From Minisyncoccota bacterium (lineage in GTDB: Bacteria; Patescibacteriota; Minisyncoccia; Phycocordibacterales; SW-6-46-9), in contig JBBDRP010000002.1 of assembly GCA_040905385.1 (NCBI GenBank), positions 595,403 through 659,402 on the forward strand: a stretch of DNA of 64,000 nucleotides, in the 5' to 3' direction. This document shows, piece after piece, positions 7,695 through 54,366 of this stretch; within the stretch, counting starts at the first letter, position 1, and the number at the start of each line of letters is the position of its first letter. A model generated the notes under the pieces. The model saw only the letters and a list, made by a program, of their open reading frames with translations, made no database searches and had not been told where the DNA came from. The position numbers were made by a program, and so were the translations under genes.

Positions 7695-8258
7695 TTATTT
7701 TTGACAGATGTAGATAAATGCCGGTGGTAGATTACGCACGACACTCGTCTTCGTTACCTGGGTGAATATACGAGCAAGATTGGACCGAAATAATCTCCCT
7801 CGAGGCAGTTGATGGAACGGAACATACGAGAAGGTCAGAAATAATCCATCCTTATCCAACGCTGTGTATATCTGGCGCAGAAGATTCTGCTGCTTTTCAT
7901 CCGAAAAACTCGTCCACGGTAGACCTGATATCACTCGCTGACACGTATCATGACCATCCATAGACAGATACTCAACAATATTCTCAGCATCACCGTGATG
8001 AACCGTAATTTGTGGATACTGCTGTCGCAGATGCTGGACAAATTTTTCGTTTATCTCAATACCAACATACTGACTACTTTTCGAAATCCTGGCTCGTATG
8101 TTGTCGGTAAATGCACCGGTTCCGGGACCTATCTCAACCACCACATCATCCGCCGTAATCTCAGCAGAGTCGACCATTAATTTCGCTAGTTTCTTAGAGC
8201 TCGGCGCTATGGCTCCGATTTTCTTCGGGTGTGTAGCTATTTCCTTTAGAAATTTCAT
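7695..8258 (-). CDS. Class I SAM-dependent methyltransferase (rRNA adenine dimethylase-like fold)
   Basis: Motif I VVEIGPGTGAFT. Confidence 0.6.
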   Translation of the reverse strand: MKFLKEIATHPKKIGAIAPSSKKLAKLMVDSAEITADDVVVEIGPGTGAFTDNIRARISKSSQYVGIEINEKFVQHLRQQYPQITVHHGDAENIVEYLSMDGHDTCQRVISGLPWTSFSDEKQQNLLRQIYTALDKDGLFLTFSYVPFHQLPRGRLFRSNLARIFTQVTKTSVVRNLPPAFIYICQK

Positions 8259-8263
8259 CTTTT

Positions 8264-8902
8264 TTATGACTCGCTCTCAATTTTCACATCCTCAATAACA
8301 ATGTCATCAAGCGGCTTATCACGCGCGTCAGTTTCGACTGCTGCCACTTCATCCACCACATCCATTCCCTCGGTAACGTATCCAAAGATCGTGTAATTAA
8401 ACGGTAACTGCTGATCCTGGTGCATAATAAAGAACTGACTACCATTTGTGTTCGGTCCGCTGTTGGCCATGGCGACCGTACCGCGCTGGTAACCACGCTC
8501 AGCAGCTTTGGAATCTGAATTAAGCTCATCGGCAAAGGTATAGCCCGGACCACCGGTGCCCGTACCAGTTGGATCACCTCCCTGGATCATGAAGCCCTCA
8601 ATAACCCGGTGAAAAATAACACCTTCGTAGAAATCATCCTCGGCCAGTGTGCGAAAATTATCTACTGTATTCGGGGCACTGTCAGGGAAAAAAGCTAGTT
8701 CGATGTCTCCTTTTGATGTCTTGATGGTTGCTGTCATGGTTGCGTTATTGTTAGTACGAGAAATATTCTGCTCCTGCTGGGTCGTGGTGCCAGTATCAAC
8801 TTGCTCCTCCGGCTGCTCAGGGCTTCTATCATTTGCCACAAACAGCCAGATGCTAATACCGATAATGATTACCAGTCCAGTTATTAAAAGTGATTTATTC
8901 AT
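8264..8902 (-). CDS. Peptidyl-prolyl cis-trans isomerase, cyclophilin type, with N-terminal TM/signal
   Basis: FHRVIEGFMIQGGDP...ANSGPNTNGSQFFI cyclophilin signature; start taken at MNKSLL to avoid overlapping the upstream gene. Confidence 0.8.
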   Translation of the reverse strand: MNKSLLITGLVIIIGISIWLFVANDRSPEQPEEQVDTGTTTQQEQNISRTNNNATMTATIKTSKGDIELAFFPDSAPNTVDNFRTLAEDDFYEGVIFHRVIEGFMIQGGDPTGTGTGGPGYTFADELNSDSKAAERGYQRGTVAMANSGPNTNGSQFFIMHQDQQLPFNYTIFGYVTEGMDVVDEVAAVETDARDKPLDDIVIEDVKIESES

Positions 8903-8916
8903 AAGCTTAGTATACC

Positions 8917-9663
8917 TTACCGCTGCTGCCATCCGTAAAAGGCCACCGCTGTTGAGGCCGCTGCATTCAAGGGAAGTCTCTCATCAGTCGGAATCGAGAT
9001 CAACTTATCGCAGTGCTCCTGGGTCTTTTCGCGAATTCCCGTCGCCTCATTACCCAGCACAAAGACTGTTGGTGACGCAAAGTTCTGCTCCGGCAGCGTC
9101 TCCTCCGCCTCACCCTCCAGACCGTACACCCAGAAGTCGTGCTCCTTTAGCTGGCGGATGATTGTGTTAACGTTCCCAATCGAGACAAGCGGAATCCGAA
9201 AGGCTGTCCCAGCCGATACCTTCACCACCGTAGATGAGACCGGCGCCTGGTTGTGCTCCGGAATCAGTACGCCGCTGATCCCAAAAGCCGCCGCATTTCG
9301 AATCACCGCTCCGACATTATGCGGATCCTGCAGCTCGCCCAGGATAACTAAACCGGTATCCTCCGTCACGTCCAAATTCTCGATAAATTCCTTGTAGTCG
9401 ACCAGTAATTTCTCGGCATCAATCTGCGCAATCACACCCTGGTGCGCATCCTCGGGTGACACGCTGCCGGGTGGGTGCTTTTTGCTAAAGTAGTGAATCG
9501 GGATGTCTGTATTCTTCATTCGATCATGCAGCGAGTGCCCCTGATACTCGGATTCAAAAAACACCTGCCTGATAACATCAGGTCGGTGGGCCAGCGCTTC
9601 TTCCAGCGCGTGCTTTCCGTATATGTAGTCTTTTCGTGCGTCCATGTGGTGGCAGTATAGCAA
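8917..9663 (-). CDS. TrmH/SpoU family RNA 2'-O-methyltransferase (RlmB-like)
   Basis: SpoU motifs LVILGELQDPHNVGAVIRNAAAFG, VFVLGNE..G, IPT. Confidence 0.75.
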   Translation of the reverse strand: MLYCHHMDARKDYIYGKHALEEALAHRPDVIRQVFFESEYQGHSLHDRMKNTDIPIHYFSKKHPPGSVSPEDAHQGVIAQIDAEKLLVDYKEFIENLDVTEDTGLVILGELQDPHNVGAVIRNAAAFGISGVLIPEHNQAPVSSTVVKVSAGTAFRIPLVSIGNVNTIIRQLKEHDFWVYGLEGEAEETLPEQNFASPTVFVLGNEATGIREKTQEHCDKLISIPTDERLPLNAAASTAVAFYGWQQR

Positions 9664-14792: not shown

Positions 14793-16358
14793 TTACATAC
14801 CGCCACCTATTGTATAACTTCCACAAACTTGATCCGAATCATTGAATGGAACCTCATCACCTTCAAACTGATTCGTGCCAACACAGTATCCGCTCTGATT
14901 TACCTCAATAATATAACCAGGTCCCTCTCCAGATGGATCTTCGGGAATCTCGTCAATAAAAACACTCTCTAACTCACCACCAGCTGCATCATGACAACTT
15001 TCATAACTACCATCATTAGCATTAGCACAAAGCTCGATGGCTGTACGGATCTGCTGCATATCAGATTGGCGCCGTGCATCTCGTGCATCCTGTCTAGCAT
15101 TTTCAGTAGCTTGTTGACTAAACTCTCCTGGCTCACCAGCAGCACCGCCCATAACGCCACCAAACATTCCGGACATGATTTCCTCTAGTGGTCGAGCATT
15201 TTCAGGTGCGGAAATATCCACCGGTTCATTGTGATCAGAGAAGCTCAACTCGATAAAGCCGTCAATTCCTGTAATGCCCGTGTAGTCTGTCTGGGGAGAC
15301 AGTTCACGTAACTCTTCTGCGGTAAATGATGAATCAATGCGGATCCGTTGGAAAAACAGTGTATCCTCGGCCACCCAGAAGGACAGGCTGTCGGCCACCT
15401 CTTCGATTCGAGCAATCGTCTCTTCGTAGGAAGCCGCCTGCTGCTGGAAGTCCCCATAGGCTGGAGAAGCCGCAAACTCCGGCTCATTCTCCTCGATAAT
15501 ACGCTGTATCTCAGTCAGCAGCGACGGAATAGCTGCGCTGTCAACTGCGATATCGTACCGATAGGCATCAACCCCCGCGTCGGTTCGAACCTGACGAACC
15601 TCCTCAATCGTAAATACATCCGAATCAGCCACGGCCGTAAAAATCTCTCGGTACGTCTCGTCAGATAGCTCAGTCTCGTCTGTCTCTAACTGATTCGGAG
15701 CCGTAAAATTGGAGGCTGGTGATTCTCCCAGTCCAATCCACTGGCCGGCAAATGACTGGAGCGGCAAGAAGGCAAGATTCGGTAGCGCTCTACCGTATAC
15801 GTAGCTTTCACCGGCCACCTGCCGGAACTCAATACCTATTACTTCATCAAGACTGTCAGCACCGACCGAGAAGGAGACGTCGAAGGCCACATCACTCTGT
15901 ACTTCAGTCTCCTGATCATCCGCTAGCGAGGCATTTCCCTCTATTGTGAGCCGTGTTGTTATCTCTTCTGGAATCTCTTCATCGGCAGAGATACCTAGAA
16001 CACTACCAAACAGCTGCCTGAGACTAGCTGCATCCTCTCTCGTTTCAAAGGCAGCCGGATCAAGTCCAATGACTGCTTCCAAAGCAAGCGTTGTCTGTAT
16101 CGTCTCCAGATCACCCTGTGCCTCCATTATTTCTGTAAATGACGGAGCGGAATCAGAATCAACCCCACCGCCAAGCTGTGAGTAAGCAAAAGCGCCACCA
16201 ATCAAAAGCAGTACAATTATCGCCACCGTAGCAACTAGGCTTCCTGCATGATGCTTTTCGGTTGACGGTTCAGGCGATGCAGTGGCCTTATCGTAATGCG
16301 GGTGCGGAATATCTCTGGAATTCTCCGCAGTATCAGGGCTGGTATCTTGATTTTCCAT
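14793..16358 (-). CDS. Membrane-anchored protein with a C-terminal type IV pilin-like domain
   Basis: TM VATVAIIVLLLIGGAFAY; C-terminal ARQDARDARRQSDMQQIRTAIELC resembles the post-TM region RQDARDARRFSDVNQIMIALELY of the pilin at 40178..40726. Confidence 0.45.
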   Translation of the reverse strand: MENQDTSPDTAENSRDIPHPHYDKATASPEPSTEKHHAGSLVATVAIIVLLLIGGAFAYSQLGGGVDSDSAPSFTEIMEAQGDLETIQTTLALEAVIGLDPAAFETREDAASLRQLFGSVLGISADEEIPEEITTRLTIEGNASLADDQETEVQSDVAFDVSFSVGADSLDEVIGIEFRQVAGESYVYGRALPNLAFLPLQSFAGQWIGLGESPASNFTAPNQLETDETELSDETYREIFTAVADSDVFTIEEVRQVRTDAGVDAYRYDIAVDSAAIPSLLTEIQRIIEENEPEFAASPAYGDFQQQAASYEETIARIEEVADSLSFWVAEDTLFFQRIRIDSSFTAEELRELSPQTDYTGITGIDGFIELSFSDHNEPVDISAPENARPLEEIMSGMFGGVMGGAAGEPGEFSQQATENARQDARDARRQSDMQQIRTAIELCANANDGSYESCHDAAGGELESVFIDEIPEDPSGEGPGYIIEVNQSGYCVGTNQFEGDEVPFNDSDQVCGSYTIGGGM

Positions 16359-16490
16359 ACTAAAAATTAGATTATGTGTGTAAATAACGCCTTATGGACG
16401 TATATTCAGCATATCACGAAATATATCGATAGATCGGCACCATGATCTGCGGTCTGCTGATGACTTGCAAAGCCTCCTGGCCCCCGTCAG

Positions 16491-18293
16491 CTACTTATCC
16501 GACTTAAGACGCCTGCCTTCGTCCAGAATCTTTTTTCGCAGCCGTGTGCTCTTTGGGGTTATTTCCAGATACTCATCGCTGGACATGATTTCCAGACCGC
16601 GCTCGATCGTTACCGGCGTCGGTGGGGCCAGGTCAACATTCTCATCCGATCCGCTAGCACGCATGTTGGTGAGATTCTTCCCCTTGGTTGGGTTGACCGC
16701 CATCTCATCACCCTTGGCCACGTTTCCGATCACCATGCCTTCATAGACATTCGTGTTCGGTGAAATGTAAAGCTCACCGCGCTGCTGCAGATTATTAAGC
16801 GCAAAAGCCAGCGCCTTACCGGACGACATCGAGGCCATTGATCCCACCGCGCGACGTGCCACCGCACCTGCATACGGCTTGAAACCAATCATCCGCGATG
16901 AGAGAATTCCGGCACCTTTCGTATCTACCACAAACTGACTACGGTATCCCAGCAGTCCTCGCGTCGGACCCTCAAAGGTCATCTGCACGCGTTCACCCGC
17001 CTGCTTCAGATCCTTCATGATGATTTGTCGGGCAGCCAACTTCTCAATAACCGTGCCCTGTGTCTCGGCCGGCGTATCTACGTTCACCTCCTCGAAAGGC
17101 TCCATCTTCTTACCATCCACCTCCTTCGTAATTGCCTGGGGCTGGGAAATCTGCAGCTCGTACCCCTCACGACGCATATTCTCCAAAAGAATGGCGATGT
17201 GCAGCTCACCACGGCCACGAACAACCATCTTCCCTTCGAGAAAATCAACATCCAGTCCAACATTAACCTCGATCTCCTTCTCCAGCCGCTCGCGGATCTG
17301 TCGGCCAGTTACGTAGTCACCCTCCTGCCCGGCAAAGGGCGAGTCATTTACTAAAAATTCTAGTGCAATCGTTGGCTCATCAATATGAATGGCCGGCAGT
17401 GGCTCGACATCCTCGCTGCCGGCAATTGTGTCACCAATATAGATATCCTCCAGCCCAGCGACCATTACAATGTCACCGGCCGTTGCCTCATCAACCTCGG
17501 TACGCTGAATCCCCTCGAAGGCAAAAAGCTTGGAGATTTTTCCTGGCTGTACACTGCCGTCAGGTTTTTCGACAAACACCTTCATGCCGGCGGCGAGAGA
17601 GCCTTCATACACACGTGCAATTGCCAGCCGACCCAGGAAATTATCATAGGCCAGATTAAACGGCTGTGCCTGTAGATCGGCGGACTCAGTCGAAACATCC
17701 TCTCCAGCCGCCGGTGGTACCTCCTTCAAGATTGTGTCCAAAAGTGGTGTCATATCAACCGGATCATCGGTCGTCTCATACATGGCTGCACCTTCAATCC
17801 CGATTGCATACAGGCTGGTAAACTCCAGCTGTGTCTCATCACCCTCTGTCTCAGCCACCAGGTCAAAGAAAAGCTCCAGCACCTCGTCCTGAACACGGTC
17901 GGGATCAGCCGCCGGCTTATCAATCTTGTTGATCACCACAATCGGCTTCAGCCCAAGCTCTAATGACTTTTTTAGTACAAAGCGCGTCTGTGGCATCGGC
18001 CCCTCCTGTGCATCCACAATTAGGAGTACTGCGTCAATACTGCGCAACACGCGCTCCACTTCCGAGCCGAAGTCGGCGTGTCCTGGTGTATCCACAATAT
18101 TAATCTTGGTATCCTTCCAGCGGACCGAGGTATTTTTGGAGTAAATCGTAATGCCTCGCTCCTTCTCTAGCATATCCGAGTCCATACTCGTATCATCCGT
18201 CACCGCGCCAGTCTGGCGCATGATGGCGTCGGTCAGCGTGGTCTTCCCATGATCCACGTGGGCAATTATGGCAATGTTTCTTATTTCAGACAT
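16491..18293 (-). CDS. typA: Translational GTPase TypA/BipA
   Basis: [24 protein letters not shown] GTPase motifs; 600 aa EF-G-like architecture. Confidence 0.9.
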
Positions 18294-18382
18294 GTATGTT
18301 TTATATTCAATGCATCTTTAAACCCAAAACTATTCGCACCGCCTGCCTGACGGCAGACAGGTAGCCGACAGCTCTAGCTGGC

Positions 18383-18566
18383 GTGGTACCGGGGTGGGCG
18401 ATTATGGCTATTTTCTAATTTCAGACATATAAATGTTATGTTTCCAACTAAATCATCAAACGACCACATCCCGCCGCGCGAAGCTCCTTTGTGCCTCCGA
18501 AGCTTTATGCGAAGGGGTATCGAGCGAAGTGAGGTGGGCTATAATTGCAATGTTTCTAATTTCCAT
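18383..18566. repeat. Two decayed tandem copies (~135-bp period) of the typA 5' end, start codon included
   Basis: Copies at 18393-18428 and 18533-18566, versus the genuine 18257-18293. Confidence 0.6.
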
Positions 18567-27781: not shown

Positions 27782-29560
27782 TTATCCGCTTGAATCTTTT
27801 GCTATATCCTTCAGGTCTTTCTTTATTGTTTTTTCAACTTTATCCAGATCCTTTTTTAATTTTTTGATAACCTCCTTCTCCTTTTTGGTGAACTTCTTCT
27901 TACCTTTAATACCCTCCAGACTCTCTAGTCGTTTCATTAACTTCTCCTTAAAGTCATCCAAAGATTCATGTAAGTCACCTTCTGTTTTTCGAAGATTTTT
28001 TCCTAATTGTTTCTTTATAAGTATAACTTTTCGCCAACCGTAGAACAGGATGATAATGAGAGCCAACAGCAGGGAAGCTATTATGATAAATGTTGTCAGT
28101 AGATCAATTGCCCAGTTACCAATTCTTACTATTGCGTGCTTCTCTACGATGATAGTAAGCTCTTTGCTCAACTCGCTCTTTGCTCCACGGCTATCAATAA
28201 CTCTCGCCTGCAGGCTGTAAACACCATCCTCCAATCCAGTATCAGAAACAAAGCTAAAGGAACCGTCGCTTTCTACAGTGACCTCGTGGTATTCCCCATC
28301 ACTTTCATCTTCTTCTTGTAGCTGAATCTCTACTTTCGAATCAGGATAATCAGTTTCTCCTTTGATGATAAATATCTCATCATTTCGAAGCGTACGAGGA
28401 TATTCAGTAATAACTGGTGCATTTAGTGGCTCAACCTCAAAATCTGCAGTATCTGCTATGGAGTTTCCGGCCTTATCAACCGCCCGCACTATCATAGTGT
28501 ATGCACCTGGCTCCAGGGCTTCGGTTTCATACCTGCCGCTTCCATCATCTCTCCATATTGACGAGTACTCATTGATGATCTGGATATCGTAATGATCTAT
28601 GCCTGAGGTTCCATCCTCAGCAGCGAAGATAAACGCTACTTTTGGGTCGGTCATGTCAGCTCTCTGTACCTCCTTAATTTCGAATCGACTTGGCTGTTCC
28701 GTGTCAATCTGGATTCGTGTATGAGAAATATCTCCCCATCCATACCCATTACGAAACTGCGCATGAAGATACCATGCTCCATCAGACAAATCTTCGATTA
28801 CTCTCTCGCTTATCGGTGGTGTGTGCTCTACTGATGGTACGCTCTCAGAAGAGTTATCTAAAAGTAAGCGGACAGATGTCACGCCGGAAGGTACGGACCA
28901 GGAAACATGAGCATCCTTCTCGGAGTACCACCCATTAGGGTCTGGATGAGACGAGGACGTAACATCTGGAGCGGCTGGTGTGTTCGCTGAAGGAGCGGGA
29001 GTAGGACTCGGTGTTGGTGTTGGAGTAGGGGTAGGTGTTGGTGTTGGGGTAGGACTAGCTTCGCCGAGCACAAAACGAGACGACCTCATTCCATCCAGAA
29101 TATTAGTCCCTTGTCCATCATTAGCAAGAACCGAACCACCGGAAAAATTAACTGCTGCTTCACCGGTAGACTTTACCCGAAAATTTAACGTTGCTATTTC
29201 ACCTCTATTACCCGAAAAACCCGGGTTCGGAATTACACCCTCGAAATTAACTGTTCCAGAAGTATTTGAAAATGCTGGTTCCTGAACCCAGAATGAAAGT
29301 ATTGAGTTCTGTCTTGAGATAGAGGTAATCTCAAGTAAATTCTGAGGAAAAGAGATTTCACCAGAAGCGGCGTTCATTGCCTGATCCAGGTTTGTTACAT
29401 CAATACTGACCGAAATATTGCTACCTACAGGATACGATCCTGATGACGGGCTTAGCTCCAGTGTGGCAGCATCAGCGGTCGTGAATGCCATTACAGCAAA
29501 GAGTATGCAGAATATTGTTAAAAACCCTCGAATTTTACTGATTACATCTGCCATATGCAC
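27782..29560 (-). CDS. Surface protein with an N-terminal cohesin-like domain, (PT)n linker, Ig/FN3-like domains, C-terminal TM and K-rich cytoplasmic tail
   Basis: Signal; cohesin-like block ...EISFPQNLLEITSISRQNSILSFWVQEPAFSNTSGTVNFEGVIPNPGFSGNRGEIATLNFRVKSTG...; PTPTPTPTPTPTPSPTPAP; TM IIIASLLLALIIILFYGW then a K/E-rich tail. Confidence 0.5.
   Translation of the reverse strand: MHMADVISKIRGFLTIFCILFAVMAFTTADAATLELSPSSGSYPVGSNISVSIDVTNLDQAMNAASGEISFPQNLLEITSISRQNSILSFWVQEPAFSNTSGTVNFEGVIPNPGFSGNRGEIATLNFRVKSTGEAAVNFSGGSVLANDGQGTNILDGMRSSRFVLGEASPTPTPTPTPTPTPTPSPTPAPSANTPAAPDVTSSSHPDPNGWYSEKDAHVSWSVPSGVTSVRLLLDNSSESVPSVEHTPPISERVIEDLSDGAWYLHAQFRNGYGWGDISHTRIQIDTEQPSRFEIKEVQRADMTDPKVAFIFAAEDGTSGIDHYDIQIINEYSSIWRDDGSGRYETEALEPGAYTMIVRAVDKAGNSIADTADFEVEPLNAPVITEYPRTLRNDEIFIIKGETDYPDSKVEIQLQEEDESDGEYHEVTVESDGSFSFVSDTGLEDGVYSLQARVIDSRGAKSELSKELTIIVEKHAIVRIGNWAIDLLTTFIIIASLLLALIIILFYGWRKVILIKKQLGKNLRKTEGDLHESLDDFKEKLMKRLESLEGIKGKKKFTKKEKEVIKKLKKDLDKVEKTIKKDLKDIAKDSSG
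28995..29060. repeat. GGTGTTGG-type simple tandem repeat encoding the (PT)n linker
   Basis: ggtgttggtgttggagtaggggtaggtgttggtgttggggtagg. Confidence 0.6.
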
Positions 29561-29597
29561 CTAAAAGAAGAATTATAAAAGCTGTGTACATTATACC

Positions 29598-30389
29598 TTA
29601 AAAACTCGCATCCTCGCTCGAAGCCGCTGCTGGAGCGATAATTTCGATTCGTTCATTACCAGCATTATCAATTGCCTTTACATAGATATGACTTTTCAGG
29701 TCCTGATCACGCAGCAAATAAGGGCTGCTTGCCTCCTGCCAAGCCGATAAAAACCTTAAAAACGTAAATCGAACCTCCTTAACCTCATACCGATCTATAC
29801 CCGAACCTTTATCCTGCGTTTCGAATACAAGAACTGCATTATTGTCAAAAAGCCTATGACGCTGCACGACCTCTGGGCTAAATGATTGTGGGCTTATACT
29901 ATCCACTCCAGCATCCGTATTGATCTCTGTTTTGTTTTCAGACCTAACCAAGGACAGCTGTACATCGGCCGGCGTTCCGGATCCGTCATTTAGTAAGGCC
30001 ACAAAGTCTTCTACTCTTATCTGATCCTCACCTCCCCCTAAAGTCTCGAAGGTAACAGAGAATATCACTCCTCTATCACCGTAGTATCCACCAGGGGTAA
30101 TCCCGGAAAAAGCTATCATTCCGTCCGTTACTTGCGGTTTCTCTATCCATAAGTTAACAAAGGAACTACCGCTATTTATACGTTTCACCTGCAAAGAATC
30201 ATCCGCGTACAGAATCTCACCCTGGACAGCATTGATGGTTTCGCCTTGCGTGTCGACAATGACATCAACACTAAACCTCTGCTCATCATCCAAAAAGTCC
30301 GGAAATATCCCTATCACGTGTAGCAACAAGGCAATAAAAACAATCCCGGTAAGTGTACTGTATGAAGTTATTCTGCTTTTATAATTCAT
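29598..30389 (-). CDS. Membrane-anchored cohesin-like domain protein (paralog of the N-terminal half of 27782..29560)
   Basis: N-terminal TM; INAVQGEILYADDSLQVKRINSGSSFVNLWIEKPQVTDGMIAFSGITPGGYYGDRGVIFSVTFETLGGG parallels the cohesin-like block of its neighbour; shared GSGIDRYEV / YVKAIDNAGN block. Confidence 0.5.
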   Translation of the reverse strand: MNYKSRITSYSTLTGIVFIALLLHVIGIFPDFLDDEQRFSVDVIVDTQGETINAVQGEILYADDSLQVKRINSGSSFVNLWIEKPQVTDGMIAFSGITPGGYYGDRGVIFSVTFETLGGGEDQIRVEDFVALLNDGSGTPADVQLSLVRSENKTEINTDAGVDSISPQSFSPEVVQRHRLFDNNAVLVFETQDKGSGIDRYEVKEVRFTFLRFLSAWQEASSPYLLRDQDLKSHIYVKAIDNAGNERIEIIAPAAASSEDASF

Positions 30390-30398
30390 GTTTTAAAA

Positions 30399-31451
30399 TT
30401 AACCGGTCCAGTGGAAGGCCATGATACTAAAGTCAGTTAAATCAACCTGCCCATCACGCTTTAAATCAGCAATATCTGGCGGTGAAGGCCGGTTGTACCA
30501 GTACGCAAGAATTGAGAAGTCAATCAAGTTCACGTTACCGTCTTCATTAACATCACCAATTAACCCAGTTTCCGTGGTTTCTCTGTACACATCCCTTGTC
30601 CCGACAGAGAAATTAACAGATTTACTGAATGGACTTATATCTTCGTCATGAATGGATCTTGATCTGGTTAAGTGATCACCTGTCTCTAAAAGAGAAGTAT
30701 CAAGATTATACAGATAGATACCATCATCATCAGCAGTAGCATTAGCAAAAATCTGATGCTCAGAATTTATGGTTATTGAGATATTTGACTCCGGTGTACT
30801 CTGACCAAAAATTACTAAGTTATTACCACGACGAACTTCTCTTTTATCCGTTGTTAACGTCGGCGCAAGAAAGACTCCTGATATATCAACTGATGAATCC
30901 TCAGTTACACTAACAGGGAACGTCTTTAAGGATGAGCGCTCCCCATTAATATCCTCACTGTATACTGAGAAAATATACCCTCCGAGTTCTAGGTCAGAAA
31001 CCCGCATCGAGAAGGTTGCATCCTGACTAGCCTGCGTAGTAGCTATTATCCTTGCGTCCTGAAGCAGAGTTACTGTTTCTCCTGGATAAGCCTTACCTGA
31101 TATTCTCACCTCCGCTTCATCATCGTCATCATCACCACCTCCACCGCCACCACCACCGCCGTCATCTGATGAAGGTGGTGGAGCAATACATTCAGACGTA
31201 TCGAAAGAGCAATCAGAACTACAGCTTAACGTACCACCTTCATAATCGAGCGTTGAGCACGTTTGACCATTAAGATCACCATTATCACACTGCTCACCAC
31301 CTTCCTTTACGTTATTACCACAAATACTTACCTTGACGGTGGTATCAATTGACGCCGTGCTCGCCCACACAGTCGCCACACCATAGGCAGCAAAGCTACC
31401 TAGTAATAAAAAAACCGTAGTTATACGCCAGCATGATATTTGTAAGTTCAT
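30399..31451 (-). CDS. Secreted Cys-rich protein with a C-terminal dockerin-like repeat pair
   Basis: Signal; 11 Cys in the N-terminal region; G9D5 linker; C-terminal DVNEDGNVNLIDFSILAYWY and DLKRDGQVDLTDFSIMAFHW (Ca-binding loop plus hydrophobic helix, dockerin type I pattern). Confidence 0.6.
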   Translation of the reverse strand: MNLQISCWRITTVFLLLGSFAAYGVATVWASTASIDTTVKVSICGNNVKEGGEQCDNGDLNGQTCSTLDYEGGTLSCSSDCSFDTSECIAPPPSSDDGGGGGGGGGDDDDDEAEVRISGKAYPGETVTLLQDARIIATTQASQDATFSMRVSDLELGGYIFSVYSEDINGERSSLKTFPVSVTEDSSVDISGVFLAPTLTTDKREVRRGNNLVIFGQSTPESNISITINSEHQIFANATADDDGIYLYNLDTSLLETGDHLTRSRSIHDEDISPFSKSVNFSVGTRDVYRETTETGLIGDVNEDGNVNLIDFSILAYWYNRPSPPDIADLKRDGQVDLTDFSIMAFHWTG

Positions 31452-32056
31452 TATTTACGCTGAACACCTATCGAGAAGGAGAATCGTCGCTTTATATACA
31501 CAACAAGCAACGTAGTTACAATAATCGCCAGGAGTGAGTACGACCACGGACTATAACGCTCTAAGATACTGAGCGTACGATAATAAACACCCTGGATGAA
31601 GTTAGCCGGCGCGACCGAGAAATTCAGCTTGGACGCCGCGGCAATCCCAATACTGGTACCACCGGACTCAGACGTACTGACCGGCCGCGCCTCCAGAAAG
31701 GCGAAGTACTCGCCCGGAACTGTTTTGATCGGGATATCCAGCTGAATACCCACCGCCCGTGTCTGGCCGGGCTCAAGCGTAAACGTCTCTGGCGAGAAAA
31801 CAAACCACTCTTCCGGCGGGCGCATCTCCTCCTGGTTCTCATGATACTCAATAGACATGGTGTAGCCGGAGGTCTCATCACCAGTATTGATAACCATCAC
31901 GGATGGCAGTGTATTCACCGCTCCGGGATTCAGCGGCTTGTCTACCTGAATCTTGCCGGTGCCGACCCCCACCCCGATCGCTCCAAACGTAACGACCGGA
32001 AGCGAGAGGAGTAAAAGGATGGCTGTAAGCTGGATTGTACGGGTAAGTACGTTCAT
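31451..32056 (-). CDS. Surface beta-sandwich protein with a C-terminal TM anchor and short basic tail
   Basis: Signal peptide; C-terminal TM LLAIIVTTLLVVYI + KRRFSF; its stop overlaps the downstream start (TAATG). Confidence 0.4.
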   Translation of the reverse strand: MNVLTRTIQLTAILLLLSLPVVTFGAIGVGVGTGKIQVDKPLNPGAVNTLPSVMVINTGDETSGYTMSIEYHENQEEMRPPEEWFVFSPETFTLEPGQTRAVGIQLDIPIKTVPGEYFAFLEARPVSTSESGGTSIGIAAASKLNFSVAPANFIQGVYYRTLSILERYSPWSYSLLAIIVTTLLVVYIKRRFSFSIGVQRK

Positions 32057-32125: not shown

Positions 32126-32641
32126 TTAGTTGGCGACCGCCTGTACCGTCACATCAGCATTTTTCTGATCCGTATCAGTAGAGCTAGTTGGAGTAGTGAT
32201 CTCCAGATCAAATGTCTGAGTGCCGGAGGAAGCTATTGCGGTTGCTAGTGTTTGGTAGCTGGTGGTGAGGGCCGTCCAGCTACTACCGGTATCAGTAGAG
32301 AATTTATGAACATACTGATCAGCTGCCGGAGTTGCAGCTAGTGTCCAGTCCGTTCCACTTCCTGATGCAGCATTCTGACCCTGAATATTGAGATCTATGG
32401 TGGTGTTTCCATCGTTGGTGGCAGTCTGCTGGTCTCCGAGAGTTTGTGTGTCCTCGGTTGTACTAGCCGACAGTACACCGTAATCGATAGCCCCATCAGC
32501 AACAGAGACAGAGATATTCTGAAACTGCACCGTTGCCGCTACGGTAGCTGAGTCCTGAGCAACTGCATAAGAGGCGACCATTAGGCCGGCAATTATAGGA
32601 ATAACGAATAGTAAAGAGGTTTTTTGCATATACTGTTTCAT
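32126..32641 (-). CDS. Secreted surface-subunit-like protein (short paralog)
   Basis: Signal; about 120-aa domain shared with 32755..34176 (IDYG..TIDLNI.GQ..WTLAAT...DQYVH.FSTD.G..WTALTT..QTLAT.IA..GTQ.FDL....DVTVQAV). Confidence 0.45.
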   Translation of the reverse strand: MKQYMQKTSLLFVIPIIAGLMVASYAVAQDSATVAATVQFQNISVSVADGAIDYGVLSASTTEDTQTLGDQQTATNDGNTTIDLNIQGQNAASGSGTDWTLAATPAADQYVHKFSTDTGSSWTALTTSYQTLATAIASSGTQTFDLEITTPTSSTDTDQKNADVTVQAVAN

Positions 32642-32754: not shown

Positions 32755-34176
32755 TTACTGCTGTACGGCCTGCACCGTCACATCCACCGACTGCTCGGTG
32801 TCACAGGATGAATCGGTCGGTGAAGTAAGCTGGAGGTCAAAATCCTGGGTGCCGGCGGCGGCAATACCAGTAGCTAAGGTTTGATTGGTAGTAGTTAGCG
32901 CCGTCCAGACGCCGCCGCTGTCGGTAGAGAACTCATGCACATACTGGTCAGTACCAGCCGTGGCGGCCAATGTCCATGGACATGCGGTATCCTGGCCGAC
33001 AATATTAAGATCAATGGTGACGTCTCCAGTGTTAGTGACTGTCTGGGTATCTCCAAGCGATATGGTGTCATTGGTATTTCCGGCCTGCACCCCACCGTAA
33101 TCAATCGATCCGTCGGATACAGTAATGGAAATCGTGGCAGCGGTGGTAAAGGAGTAGCACAGCCCCGAATCGGTAAAGGTGCCGCTGCCGTCCGGATCCA
33201 GTGCCGAGGCCTCCCACCAGTACTGGGTACCAGCCGTTAAGGCATCGCCAGACTGGACGGTAAAATCTCCCTGCGTGCCAGATGTGTAGCAGCTGGTGGG
33301 GCTATTTGTACAGGTGGCATCGGTGCCGGCCCAGCCGGTGGAATCAACCGACTGATCATGGGTCTGTACCACGGTTGAACAGCCAGAATCCGAATAAATT
33401 GTAGTCTTGTAGCCAAGATTATCACCGTCCGGATCCGTCGTCGTCATCAGGAAATTCGGGGTTTTACTGACGTCAGTCGCACCATCAGTAGGCGCATCCT
33501 GGGATGGTGCATTCGGGGGCTGGTTGGGCGGTGTGTACTCAACCGTTACTCGCACCCGATACACGCTCACAAGCTGAGGTGGGCCTCCGGTATCTTTTAT
33601 GTACCGCAGTATGACCCCGAAATTTGCCGAGGTAACATCCGCCTGTGTCAGCCCAGCTCCCCACCCATCCGCAGATCCGCCGTAGGTTTGTATTGTCTTG
33701 GTTGTTTGTGATAGATTACCTGCTTTATTATCACCTACCCCGTTACTTCCATCAGTGGTGAGCTGAACCGTATCATCAGACACAGAAGTATCCTGGGTCA
33801 GCCACTCTACCTCAACCGTTACGCCATCAATTGTCGAGTCAGCGGGAATATCTGTGGATGTAAAGCCAAAGTTTGTAGCCGACAGCACACTGGTGAAGGA
33901 ACCATTTCCACCCAGGTCACAGGTGGTGGCCGTGTCGGTGGTATCGCCAGTGGCATTACCAATATTTTCCCAAGAACACTTATTTGTCACCACCTCCGTT
34001 GCCGTGCCGGTATAGTAGGTACTGGTCGTATCGGCGGAGGCAACCTGCGGCTGCGGCGGAATATCCGGATTCGAGGATAGCTGCGGCCAGCCGGAAAAGA
34101 TCCACAAAAGTGCGACTAATGTAGCTATTGCTGGGGTAAGATACTTCACGGTACATATTATACTACACATTTTCAC
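32755..34176 (-). CDS. Secreted surface-subunit-like protein (long paralog with a T/D-rich N-terminal extension)
   Basis: Signal; the C-terminal domain is homologous to the 32126..32641 product. Confidence 0.45.
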   Translation of the reverse strand: MKMCSIICTVKYLTPAIATLVALLWIFSGWPQLSSNPDIPPQPQVASADTTSTYYTGTATEVVTNKCSWENIGNATGDTTDTATTCDLGGNGSFTSVLSATNFGFTSTDIPADSTIDGVTVEVEWLTQDTSVSDDTVQLTTDGSNGVGDNKAGNLSQTTKTIQTYGGSADGWGAGLTQADVTSANFGVILRYIKDTGGPPQLVSVYRVRVTVEYTPPNQPPNAPSQDAPTDGATDVSKTPNFLMTTTDPDGDNLGYKTTIYSDSGCSTVVQTHDQSVDSTGWAGTDATCTNSPTSCYTSGTQGDFTVQSGDALTAGTQYWWEASALDPDGSGTFTDSGLCYSFTTAATISITVSDGSIDYGGVQAGNTNDTISLGDTQTVTNTGDVTIDLNIVGQDTACPWTLAATAGTDQYVHEFSTDSGGVWTALTTTNQTLATGIAAAGTQDFDLQLTSPTDSSCDTEQSVDVTVQAVQQ

Positions 34177-35486: not shown

Positions 35487-36512
35487 TTATGAATTAGTTA
35501 TTTTACTCTTAGCAACCACCAGCATACTTTCCGACCAGCCGAGTGGATTATTCTCATTCGGCTCGTCAGTGTTTGAGTAGTACAGCTCCGGAACGCCGGC
35601 CTCGGTGACCGTCTCCTCGGCCTGCTCCAGCCAGTACCGGGCCGCCTCGTCATCACCACGCTCATGGTGAATGATTGCCAGCCACGGGAAGCCGAAGCAC
35701 CACTCGGCTTCCTCGGAAAAGCCGTCCTCGTTGCGGTTGTAGTAGTGATCATTCTTGTAGCGCACCACCCCGCGCCGCCGGGCCAGATGATACTCCAGCC
35801 GCTCCAGGATAATGTCGCCAACCGTCTCATCCACGAGATTGTACGGATAGAAAAGCGACAGCTGCGCGAGGTCACAAAACTTGCTTTCCGACTCCCGTGG
35901 CAAGAGATCTGCTAGCGCCGCCTCGCCCTGAGTAATCAGCTCATCCGGAACATGGATAAAATCAAGCCGGGCAACCTGCCGCAACCCAGCCACACAGGCA
36001 CCGACTGATGATGCATGCACCTCCTCGTACTCCTCCCAGACACCATTGTCGGGATCATGCCAGTACTCAATCGAGGCCAGGTAATCTACGAGTCTTTGGA
36101 TCGTCTCCTGATCCTCTGGCTGTATAACACCGTAGCCGGTCGCCTCCAGATCACCCAGCTTGTATAGGATTGCGCCGACCGCATCATTCTGCTTGTTGCC
36201 CCACTCCTCCCAAAACTCCTCGAAGGTCTCTGGATGATAACGCGCATGAATGTACTGCCAGCTTTCGTGTGGGCGATGCTCTGCCGCCCAGTCAATCTTG
36301 TCGCGATGCTTGTTGAAAATCTCCAGAATTGCCCGCCACATCGCCTCAACCAGCTCCCATTCACCGGCTGCTTCCAAGCCGAGTGATATATAAAAGTTAT
36401 CTCGCAGCCAGGCCTTGTCATAGCCGGTCTCTACCCCTTGTGACGAGGCCAGGAAAAGCCCACCGTTAGAACGAAGCTTTTTGATATTCTCAACATGTTG
36501 GTTAATGTCCAT
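35487..36512 (-). CDS. Glycoside hydrolase family 15-like (glucoamylase/glucodextranase-related) protein
   Basis: AWLRDN motif; alpha/alpha-toroid-like W-rich sequence. Confidence 0.5.
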   Translation of the reverse strand: MDINQHVENIKKLRSNGGLFLASSQGVETGYDKAWLRDNFYISLGLEAAGEWELVEAMWRAILEIFNKHRDKIDWAAEHRPHESWQYIHARYHPETFEEFWEEWGNKQNDAVGAILYKLGDLEATGYGVIQPEDQETIQRLVDYLASIEYWHDPDNGVWEEYEEVHASSVGACVAGLRQVARLDFIHVPDELITQGEAALADLLPRESESKFCDLAQLSLFYPYNLVDETVGDIILERLEYHLARRRGVVRYKNDHYYNRNEDGFSEEAEWCFGFPWLAIIHHERGDDEAARYWLEQAEETVTEAGVPELYYSNTDEPNENNPLGWSESMLVVAKSKITNS

Positions 36513-52905: not shown

Positions 52906-54366
52906 TTATAAGGCTGAAGATGTGAAAATATCGCCCGATGGCAAGAACTCCAACCGATACTCGCGACCAAGTCCTCGAAACTCTTCGGATTCTTCATGAA
53001 TCAAAAGCGAGCTAAAATCCTCTTCCCACTTTACGCCGTCACAGCCCGAATCAAACGGAAATCCATTCAGCACAATCTGTCGCTTCTCTTGTGGGTTCAA
53101 AAGCAGTACCTCACAAGCCTCGCCGTCTTCAATCGTGTTAGCCACTGCCAACCATGGCTTGCCCTCGGTAACATCAGCCCCAAGTTCGCTGGTTGTCATC
53201 GGGTTATACTCACCGCCGTTGAAACGATCATGGGGTACAGTGATCGGCTGTATCTTCTGTTCTTCCGTATCATAAACCCGCATATTTTTACTATAAATAT
53301 TAACTAGCAGAGCGTGCTCATTATCAAGCCAGCGGATCATTCGGCCGGGGTTAGAAAACGTCTTGGCTTCTCTGGTAGTAGCATCATAAACAAATAAGTC
53401 TTCGCACAAACCATCTATAGACAGCTGGCTAGCATACTTTGTGTTATCTGGGGAAAATGTCCTTGGCGCACTGAAGTCATATGTGCAGACATTACTACTT
53501 TCAGCCAAAACCTCCCCAGAACTGTCACGAAATTGAACATACGTTTCGCCAGTTACTGAATTATCATATATGAAAAATTCACCATCAACGTCTGCTGATT
53601 TTGGCACCACAGTTAAGCCAGATGTACCCGGCCGTTGATTATTTCGGGACGCTGAACTTCCGCCATTGAAATGATACAGACGGCTTGCAGTGCCGGTAAA
53701 CTGCACATTGAAAATATCCGAATGCTCTGACACATCATACGTTACCGACGTTATCTCACCTTCGGCCGCTCGACGTTCTATACCACCCTGAATAATGGCC
53801 GGTGCACTTAGAAGATATCCCAAAAGCGGCCATATCATTATCGCCAGCACAGCTGCTAGCAACGAATGCATCACACGACTCTTGCTCAAGTACCGATACA
53901 CTGGAAGCAGCCACCAAGAGATGAGCCAGGACATCCCACCAGCAGTAATCATAGCAAAAAATGGAATGATGAAGAGAGCTCCTGCGAGACCACTTTGCGG
54001 AAATAGTGTGGCCGTAATGTCATTTCCGACCAAGCTAAAGAAATGACCGTAAAAAAGTAGAAAAGAACCAATTGTCATCAGTGCAGCTAGGCAGATAAAG
54101 AATCGTGTGTAACCATTCTTCCATCGCCGGCGAACATAAATAGCAATTGCAGAAACCACCACACCTATAGCTAGCAAAATCAACCCGGTAGTGAAGGCAT
54201 CTTCCAGCCCAACAAGATTCTCTACGAAAAATGGAAAGCCAAAGTAAGGTACGACAAAGGCTCCGATCAAAAAGATACCCACTACAATAGTGCGAACGAT
54301 AGGAAAATTAGCCTTGTCCGATTGATTGGCTAATTCCGGAGCCTGTTGTGCATCTGGTGTATTCAT
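52906..54366 (-). CDS. Large membrane protein: N-terminal polytopic domain + C-terminal beta-propeller-like periplasmic domain
   Basis: About 10 TM then a TolB/WD40-like low-complexity pattern (YDVSEHSDIFNVQF...VYDTEEQKIQPI...). Confidence 0.4.
   Translation of the reverse strand: MNTPDAQQAPELANQSDKANFPIVRTIVVGIFLIGAFVVPYFGFPFFVENLVGLEDAFTTGLILLAIGVVVSAIAIYVRRRWKNGYTRFFICLAALMTIGSFLLFYGHFFSLVGNDITATLFPQSGLAGALFIIPFFAMITAGGMSWLISWWLLPVYRYLSKSRVMHSLLAAVLAIMIWPLLGYLLSAPAIIQGGIERRAAEGEITSVTYDVSEHSDIFNVQFTGTASRLYHFNGGSSASRNNQRPGTSGLTVVPKSADVDGEFFIYDNSVTGETYVQFRDSSGEVLAESSNVCTYDFSAPRTFSPDNTKYASQLSIDGLCEDLFVYDATTREAKTFSNPGRMIRWLDNEHALLVNIYSKNMRVYDTEEQKIQPITVPHDRFNGGEYNPMTTSELGADVTEGKPWLAVANTIEDGEACEVLLLNPQEKRQIVLNGFPFDSGCDGVKWEEDFSSLLIHEESEEFRGLGREYRLEFLPSGDIFTSSAL

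Follow-up and report, generated by a model that had tools for sequence, protein, structure and literature searches.

Three adjacent genes in a 64-kb window of DNA from a Minisyncoccota bacterium (the window is the whole stretch analysed, 64,000 nucleotides of contig JBBDRP010000002.1, and its own numbering is used throughout) probably encode a cohesin-dockerin complex which is non-cellulosomal and part of the Patescibacteria cell envelope, as judged from the modules of the three proteins and the linkage of their genes. All three genes lie on the minus strand and follow one another in the order of a secreted dockerin protein of 350 amino acids (aa) (31451-30399), a small cohesin-like paralogue of 263 aa (30389-29598) and a large cohesin protein (29560-27782), which has 592 aa when read from a GTG codon and 590 aa when read from an ATG codon. 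The spacers between these open reading frames (ORFs) measure 9 nt, from the dockerin gene to the small cohesin gene, and 37 nt, from the small to the large gene, which bears out the co-oriented, tightly packed arrangement described in an initial annotation of this DNA.

A large part of bacterial diversity belongs to the Patescibacteria, most of whose members are believed to lead a life attached to other cells; to our knowledge, almost nothing is known of their envelope proteins besides type IV pili. The trio is a fixed and near-universal unit in many Patescibacteria lineages, and in it plug and socket modules for protein-protein contact are combined with a transmembrane (TM) span that reaches the cytoplasm; this makes it a concrete candidate, and one that is easy to test, for an attachment complex or a core complex of the envelope. 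Such a complex would rank as the most widespread cohesin-dockerin system known outside cellulosomes, and it provides a natural case in which to ask whether a symmetric dockerin can bridge two different cohesins.

Modules and conserved order of the trio

The dockerin named in the initial annotation is recovered by a Pfam search, in which residues 299-344 of the 350-aa protein match Dockerin_1 (PF00404) with 33.3 bits against a cut-off of 22.9; the same match is made by 55 of 58 orthologues, and an identical NCBI protein is named "dockerin type I domain-containing protein". The profile of the family, when compared with the PDB, reaches the solved dockerins 2y3n_B (E 2.8e-5), 5nrm_B and 1daq. The module (residues 299-350, 30402-30557 on the minus strand) has the layout of a type I dockerin, in that it is composed of two duplicated segments of about 22 residues, DVNEDGNVNLIDFSILAYWY and DLKRDGQVDLTDFSIMAFHW, each consisting of a 12-residue Ca-binding loop followed by a helix. 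The first loop is D300-N302-D304-N308-D311 and the second is D329-K331-D333-D337-D340. Across the 58 orthologues D1 and D5 of the first loop are invariant and N3, N9 and D12 are each present in at least 52, and the second loop is looser, with D1 present in 39; the helices that follow the loops are almost alike and are invariant or nearly so (FSI.AYWY and FSIMA(F/Y)YW), and the protein terminates in WTG immediately after the second helix. Position 3 of the second loop is occupied in the window protein by a lysine, K331 (codon 30459-30461), which is found at this position in none of the other orthologues, 52 of the 58 having asparagine there, and with this substitution the second repeat may bind Ca less strongly.

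The remainder of the dockerin protein consists, from the N-terminus, of a signal peptide, a six-cysteine head module (residues 41-88, 31188-31331, minus strand) which resembles DUF4215 at a level below the Pfam cut-off (E 0.008), a conserved poly-Gly/Asp hinge and two immunoglobulin (Ig)-like domains of the Big_6 family (36.3 bits in Pfam). Hydropathy analysis detects only the N-terminal hydrophobic or signal segment, and a C-terminal TM helix is present in none of the 58 orthologues. The domains found by Pfam in the protein and its 58 orthologues are exclusively of Ig-like, Cys-rich, EF-hand and adhesion types, and neither a catalytic domain nor a carbohydrate-binding module (CBM) is among them. 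When conservation is expressed as the mean frequency of the commonest residue, it peaks within the large protein at the cohesin (0.77) and within the dockerin protein at the dockerin (0.72), and in the latter protein it is lowest in the head (0.37), though the cysteine pattern of the head can be seen in the family consensus. The head also varies in length across loci, with extremes of about 100 and over 400 residues, in proteins which range from 237 to 711 aa overall, and it is a better candidate for an outward-facing ligand site than are the cohesin and dockerin modules.

The initial annotation had placed cohesin modules at the N-termini of both of the other proteins. For the large protein this stands: residues 42-149 match Cohesin (PF00963) with 34.8 bits against a cut-off of 24.1, and 26 of 47 orthologues give a match at E ≤ 0.01. 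A structural model generated with AlphaFold2 from an alignment of 47 family members (mean predicted local distance difference test score, pLDDT, 85.4) consists of a signal helix, an all-beta domain (residues 32-165), a disordered linker, three Ig-like domains and a long C-terminal helix, and the all-beta domain has the nine-stranded beta-sandwich (jelly-roll) fold of a cohesin. The initial annotation had named a missing profile match and an inconsistent fold as grounds for giving up its reading; neither applies to the large protein, and the first does not apply to the dockerin. The feature boundaries, all on the minus strand, follow from the sequence and the model together: the cohesin module occupies residues 31-166 (29063-29470), and the Pro/Thr-rich (PT) linker, which is poorly conserved and of low occupancy and has pLDDT values below 50 at residues 169-188, occupies residues 167-199 (28964-29062). 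The Ig-like stalk (28139-28963) was delimited from the predicted strands and the Big_13 match, and comprises domains at residues 200-288 ('STHPDP..WY'), 289-378 ('SGIDHY..DKAGN') and 379-474 (Big_13, 52 bits in Pfam); the profile of the protein reaches the Big_13 repeats of Bap (7dm0, E 3e-7), and Foldseek searches with the model return tandem Ig/FN3 arrays. A number of giant proteins, P0361 (4269 aa), P0365 (5271 aa), P0364, P0378 and P0487, contain 16-44 tandem copies of the 'STHPDP..WY' and 'SGID..DKAGN' stalk domains, which correspond to profile positions of about 185-370.

The C-terminal part of the large protein (27785-28138, minus strand) comprises a TM helix at residues of about 476-515 and a K/E-rich helical tail at residues 516-592, which the model renders as a continuous helix over residues 476-553 and a second helix over residues 559-591. 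The PT linker, C-terminal TM helix and charged tail (about 77-86 aa) of the initial annotation are thus all present. A hydropathy scan places a C-terminal TM helix in all 47 orthologues, with a median of 86 residues after it, and the tail is more conserved (0.64) than the third and fourth domains of the protein, which are Ig domains (0.56-0.57). The large protein is a type I membrane protein whose cohesin sits at the distal tip and whose conserved coiled coil of about 85 aa forms a tail in the cytoplasm, and the conservation of this tail implies an intracellular partner. The ORF begins formally at the GTG at 29560, but the true start is probably the ATG two codons downstream at 29554, which follows an AGGTG and serves as the start of the identical gene on a Logan contig, with a product of 590 aa.

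For the small protein, the cohesin assignment could not be sustained by Pfam directly, since the module (residues ~36-150, 29940-30284, minus strand) scores 15.7 bits against PF00963, below the cut-off, and only 14 of 70 orthologues give a match at E ≤ 0.01. Its homology to cohesins is nevertheless established, because the small and large families align in hhalign with a probability of 100% (E 2e-43), and because the small-family profile reaches the Ruminococcus flavefaciens cohesin 5aoz (E 6e-4). The alignment spans both the cohesin and the Ig-like domain (GSGIDRYEV...IDNAGN in the small protein, residues ~166-250, 29640-29894, minus strand) which the initial annotation had recognized as common to the two, and relative to the small protein the large one has the PT linker and one extra domain inserted. 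By these sequence comparisons the small protein is an unambiguous paralogue of the large one, and it would be expected to adopt the cohesin fold by homology. Both paralogues share the motifs NA..G, S....W...P, F(E/S)G, PG and NDG.GT, which on the model would map to strands 3, 5 and 6 and the turn between strands 8 and 9, the canonical dockerin-binding face.

The membrane anchoring attributed to both proteins holds for the large protein, through its C-terminal TM helix, but not for the small protein as it is encoded here. By design the family comprises two type I membrane proteins that each carry a cohesin at the outer end, together with one soluble, secreted dockerin protein. A C-terminal TM helix followed by about 7 residues is detected by the hydropathy scan in 67 of 70 small orthologues, whose consensus ends in ...WYENY....III....K.LW, whereas the window protein has a single hydrophobic segment, at its N-terminus. 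An in-frame TAA (29598-29600) removes the anchor, the remnant of which can be read in the same frame beyond it as GIMYTAFIILLLGAYGRCNQ followed by a second stop (29538-29600, minus strand), overlapping the start of the large gene as the corresponding segment does in other genomes. With the anchor cut off, the small protein of this genome must be secreted or held by its N-terminal segment only. An identical 263-aa product (100% identity) is encoded on Logan contig L001; the TAA could represent a recent nonsense mutation, a consensus error or a site of read-through.

The initial annotation named co-occurrence of the trio in related genomes as a check, and the trio does co-occur on a large scale. 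The large protein has 271 full-length database homologues at 40-49% identity, and every informative name among them is that of a member of the Patescibacteria; a profile search of 1.84 billion cluster representatives returned 4,334 proteins at E ≤ 1e-30. Scanning one genome per GTDB species yielded at least 573 loci, 80 of which were kept for gene-order analysis and supplemented by six from exact-protein look-ups, and the counts given here refer to loci with enough upstream sequence. Represented among the 80 are Portnoy-, Falkow-, Wolfe-, Jorgensen-, Colwell-, Magasanik-, Wildermuth-, Komeili-, Dojka-, Doudna-, Sung-, Vogel-, Staskawicz- and Uhrbacteria, Microgenomatus and Paceibacterota. The small cohesin gene adjoins the large gene in 68 of 73 loci, the strict order of dockerin, small and large gene is kept in 56 of 61 informative species-representative loci, and when variants are included the dockerin gene lies upstream of the cohesin genes in 60 of the 61. 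Of the five exceptions, L029 has the small and large genes fused, L026 has an additional paralogue, L064 holds a second copy close to the trio, L055 has a dockerin protein that is longer and divergent, and L037 is a lone gene. Across loci the genes of the trio overlap or are tightly spaced, and an order which is kept throughout the Patescibacteria in a family with thousands of members is not a chance effect.

Several individual loci depart from the common arrangement in other respects. Fused small and large cohesins of about 870-900 aa occur at L029 (6835-9468) and in P0363, P0368, P0375 and P0380 (866-901 aa), which is consistent with the two cohesins acting together. At L054 a second pair lies about 5 kb downstream of the trio, with a dockerin ORF of about 800 aa (15526-17934) followed by a cohesin-like ORF (17934-18557). 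In a Jorgensenbacteria metagenome-assembled genome (MAG) a PDDEXK_3 gene (L008/L032, 2160-2576) separates the dockerin gene from the small cohesin gene, and at L007 a frameshift or an assembly error has left the dockerin gene as two overlapping ORFs (7976-9062). An STT3/AglB gene adjoins the cluster at L007 only, and a link to N-glycosylation was therefore dropped. Several cluster-bearing entries (L010, L034, L050, L054, L060, L061, L068, L069, P0175 and P0334) carry database labels from outside the Patescibacteria, namely Methylomirabilis, Gammaproteobacteria, Deferribacteres, Spirochaetota and Bathyarchaeia; these are probably mis-binned or mislabelled MAGs and not true outside occurrences.

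Assembly of the proposed complex

In the complex that we propose, the dockerin would bind one or both cohesins in a Ca-dependent manner after export of the proteins by the Sec pathway, as the identity of the modules and the linkage of their genes suggest, and the Ig/Cys-rich protein would be held non-covalently outside the cytoplasmic membrane at the tip of a flexible, PT-linked stalk. Since the two dockerin helices are near-duplicates of one another and both cohesins retain the same motifs, the dockerin may have a dual binding mode, or it may join the small to the large cohesin in a 1:1:1 complex. Through its conserved cytoplasmic tail the large protein would couple the complex to an intracellular partner, and the complex would act together with the products of three further genes that lie upstream. 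Its role would be structural or adhesive, either in the organization of the envelope or in cell-cell contact, as opposed to the degradation of polysaccharides.

A number of considerations weigh against this interpretation. The pairing of cohesin with dockerin is put forward from module identity and gene linkage, and the small protein's cohesin lies below the Pfam threshold, its fold being assigned by homology. The co-evolution signal is modest: in a mirror-tree comparison uncorrected for phylogeny, the distances of the dockerin have their best match outside its own protein in the large cohesin (r 0.43), and those of the large cohesin have theirs in the Ig-like portion of the dockerin protein (r 0.66), values which would be compatible with co-evolution within the limits of so crude an analysis. 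The system may also be partly degenerate in the window genome, because the small paralogue there lacks its anchor and the second dockerin loop contains a lysine. Finally, the presence of a single dockerin and two cohesins of the trio type in the window favours their pairing, but this count covers the 64 kb, and the real partners of these modules could be other dockerin or cohesin proteins of the same genome.

The six-gene operon and alternative readings

The initial annotation treated the trio as a self-contained three-gene operon, and on this point it has to be revised. Six genes lie between a terminator-like hairpin with a 17-bp stem (34264-34228, minus strand), which ends the preceding 191-aa gene just upstream, and a weak terminator-like site, found by a consensus scan only, downstream of the large cohesin gene (27647-27633, minus strand), and for this reason the transcription unit is most simply read as 34176-27782. 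The cohesin-dockerin trio is the distal half of this operon and its most conserved core. The three additional genes, also on the minus strand, encode a secreted protein of 473 aa, which is the first of the operon (32755-34176), a secreted Ig-like protein of 171 aa with an invariant N-terminal strand (ATVTATVT-QN; 32126-32641), and a membrane protein of 201 aa directly upstream of the dockerin gene (31451-32056). The overlap of the dockerin start codon with the stop codon of this last gene (TAATG), already pointed out in the initial annotation, is readily seen in the sequence.

The 201-aa protein consists of a signal peptide, one Ig-like domain of NEW3/CARDB-like type, with a weak match to NPCBM_assoc (E 0.0026), and a C-terminal TM helix. 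When its domain was pursued with an iterated hidden Markov model, a protein of 200-360 aa containing it was found to be encoded immediately before the dockerin gene in most of the approximately 40 loci with enough upstream sequence (examples are L004 6678-7658, L002 7230-8102 and L007 7012-8016), and its gene is therefore to be regarded as a widely conserved fourth member of the cluster.

These upstream genes raise the possibility, which we regard as doubtful at present, that the trio is the membrane-proximal base of a larger appendage built from all six genes, in which the 171-aa protein would polymerize via donor-strand complementation, the large protein ending in the same domain would form the cap, and the 201-aa protein and the cohesin-dockerin complex would anchor or assemble the fibre. 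Such a fibre would extend the cohesin-dockerin complex proposed above and does not exclude it. It is favoured by the position of the six genes between terminator-like hairpins and the TAATG coupling of the 201-aa and dockerin genes, by the recurrence of a 201-like gene upstream of the dockerin gene, and by the relation between the first two genes of the operon: the C-terminal ~125 aa of the 473-aa protein are a paralogue of the 171-aa protein (60% identity between residues 349-471 and 43-169 in BLASTP), and the same pattern, a large protein with a copy of the following small protein at its C-terminus, is seen again at loci where the sequences are unrelated (947 and 351 aa at L004, 59% identity; 1645 and 316 aa at L002, 43%). 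In addition, the model of the 171-aa protein is an Ig-like sandwich in which the invariant N-terminal strand is left unpacked, and the copies of the domain in the large upstream proteins are mostly without this strand. Against the fibre, the 171-like family is detected by sequence in only about 15 loci, genes for a chaperone, usher, sortase or SipW-type or other signal peptidase are absent from the cluster, and the reading presumes a physical link between the fibre candidates and the cohesin-dockerin proteins.

In their combination of secreted Ig-like subunits with a membrane protein made up of a signal peptide, an Ig domain and a TM helix, the upstream genes resemble the WxL/WxLIP (DUF916) surface-protein clusters of Firmicutes and the donor-strand fibres (TasA, archaeal AbpA and chaperone-usher pilins), but they differ from the WxL, TasA and pilin systems in that no upstream protein matches WxL (PF13731), DUF916/DUF3324, TasA or pilin families in Pfam at E ≤ 1, as well as in the missing assembly genes just named. 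Taken furthest, the six genes might encode an unrecognized, superphylum-wide surface organelle, with an Ig-like fibre or spike, a variable tip and a cohesin-dockerin base whose large subunit would be tied to a cytoplasmic partner via its tail; we consider this unlikely, and if it were true the organelle would be a dedicated contact apparatus for an episymbiotic lifestyle, distinct from type IV pili.

A different view, to which we assign a low probability, is that the modules do not pair with one another, but that the dockerin protein or the cohesin tips bind host surface proteins or glycans, or dockerin and cohesin proteins encoded at other sites of the genome, in which case gene linkage would reflect the co-regulation of independent adhesins. 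Non-cellulosomal dockerins have indeed been proposed as adhesins in other ultra-small bacteria, as in the case of a giant Omnitrophota ORF with nine dockerins (PMC10066038), Wang et al. 2023 (PMC10633639) describe SEML1_0315 of the saccharibacterium Southlakia as an essential, stand-alone protein with a dockerin domain, and extra cohesin-like and dockerin ORFs are present at some of our loci. Surfaces that bind a host would be expected to diversify, however, and in this system conservation is highest in the dockerin helices and the cohesin, among organisms whose hosts are presumably different; so high a degree of conservation throughout the superphylum points to a conserved internal interface and away from a host-specific adhesin. 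The strictly kept gene order, the gene overlaps, the occasional fusion of the two cohesin genes and the common motif set of the two paralogues likewise speak against independent adhesins. A minimal cellulosome-like display of polysaccharide-degrading enzymes is most improbable and can be treated as effectively refuted, for although cellulosomes are defined by cohesin and dockerin modules and a GH15-like gene lies about 4 kb upstream (35487-36512), catalytic domains and CBMs occur in none of the trio proteins, nor in the 58 orthologues of the window's sole dockerin protein, each cohesin protein carries one cohesin only and is of a family anchored by a TM helix, with no CBM, S-layer homology (SLH) or sortase/LPXTG match, and the GH15-like gene has no dockerin and lies outside the operon, beyond the terminator hairpin.

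Known systems and genomic surroundings

Cohesin and dockerin modules outside cellulosomes form a known, poorly understood class (Peer et al. 2009, FEMS Microbiol Lett 291:1, as it is cited in PMC6487960 and PMC10066038), and the function of such pairs is mostly obscure. The Patescibacteria trio resembles this class, including the cohesin of Archaeoglobus fulgidus (PDB 2xdh), in having a single cohesin per protein, a non-cellulolytic organism and a non-enzymatic partner with a type-I-like dockerin. It differs from the class in being a fixed trio of one dockerin protein and two paralogous cohesin proteins, in the TM anchoring of the cohesins, one of which has a conserved cytoplasmic coiled-coil tail, in its superphylum-wide distribution within a larger conserved operon, and in the family-specific invariant motif (L/A)NDG.GT of its cohesins.

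Among cellulosomal proteins the closest parallel is offered by the anchoring scaffoldins (OlpA, OlpC and SdbA of Clostridium thermocellum and the ScaC and ScaE types; PDB 4uyp, 3ul4, 4dh2 and 2zf9), which are likewise surface proteins with one or a few cohesins that capture a dockerin partner, and the duplicated, symmetric Patescibacteria dockerin resembles dockerins with a dual binding mode such as that of C. cellulolyticum (2vn5). The Patescibacteria proteins, in contrast to these scaffoldins, use a C-terminal TM helix and cytoplasmic tail in place of SLH domains or sortase attachment, and they occur without catalytic subunits, CBMs or a multi-cohesin scaffoldin in a reduced, non-cellulolytic genome. 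In Clostridium perfringens the corresponding modules are borne by large secreted enzymes (NagJ, NagH and the sialidase; PDB 2vo8, 2w1n and 2o4e), whereas in the Patescibacteria neither partner is enzymatic and the cohesin partners are integral membrane proteins. The architecture of the large protein is strikingly similar to that of TMEM132 of holozoa, which has a cohesin homologue, three Ig domains, a TM helix and a cytoplasmic tail and is predicted to connect the cell exterior to the cytoskeleton (PMC6030884). This is a likeness of design, read from the domain layout, and it is probably convergent; TMEM132 is eukaryotic and is without a known dockerin partner.

No description of the trio was found in the literature on cohesins and dockerins in the candidate phyla radiation (CPR), Patescibacteria, Parcubacteria or Saccharibacteria, and the terms cohesin, dockerin, PF00963 and PF00404 are absent from the searched supplementary tables of Wang et al. 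(PMC10633639). SEML1_0315 was considered as an orthologue of the dockerin protein and rejected, being a stand-alone gene for a protein of 927 aa between hydrolase and tRNA genes. Individual members of the families are already named in databases, as "cohesin domain-containing" and "dockerin type I repeat-containing" proteins, and NCBIfam provides a family-level name for none of the six operon proteins. The features that appear to be new are the fixed trio, the two TM-anchored paralogous cohesins, the cytoplasmic tail, the conserved operon and the distribution across the superphylum.

A promoter scan gave a signal no higher than in shuffled sequence, and Rfam and tRNA scans of the 64-kb window returned no match. 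The genes flanking the operon are an unrelated housekeeping set (DoxX, alpha/beta hydrolase, ArsR, DUF3179, PNPOx and the GH15-like gene), and the other gene content of the window is consistent with chromosomal DNA of Patescibacteria. Both the 171-aa and the 350-aa protein have NCBI counterparts of 100% identity from a MAG labelled Candidatus Paceibacterota bacterium; the window is accordingly chromosomal DNA of a member of the Patescibacteria, an origin that fits the episymbiont-type organism suggested in the initial annotation. Between positions 54000 and 60000 of the window the G+C content falls to 0.40-0.42, compared with about 0.48 elsewhere, and only short ORFs of 163-205 aa are present, so that this segment may be horizontally acquired or otherwise atypical.

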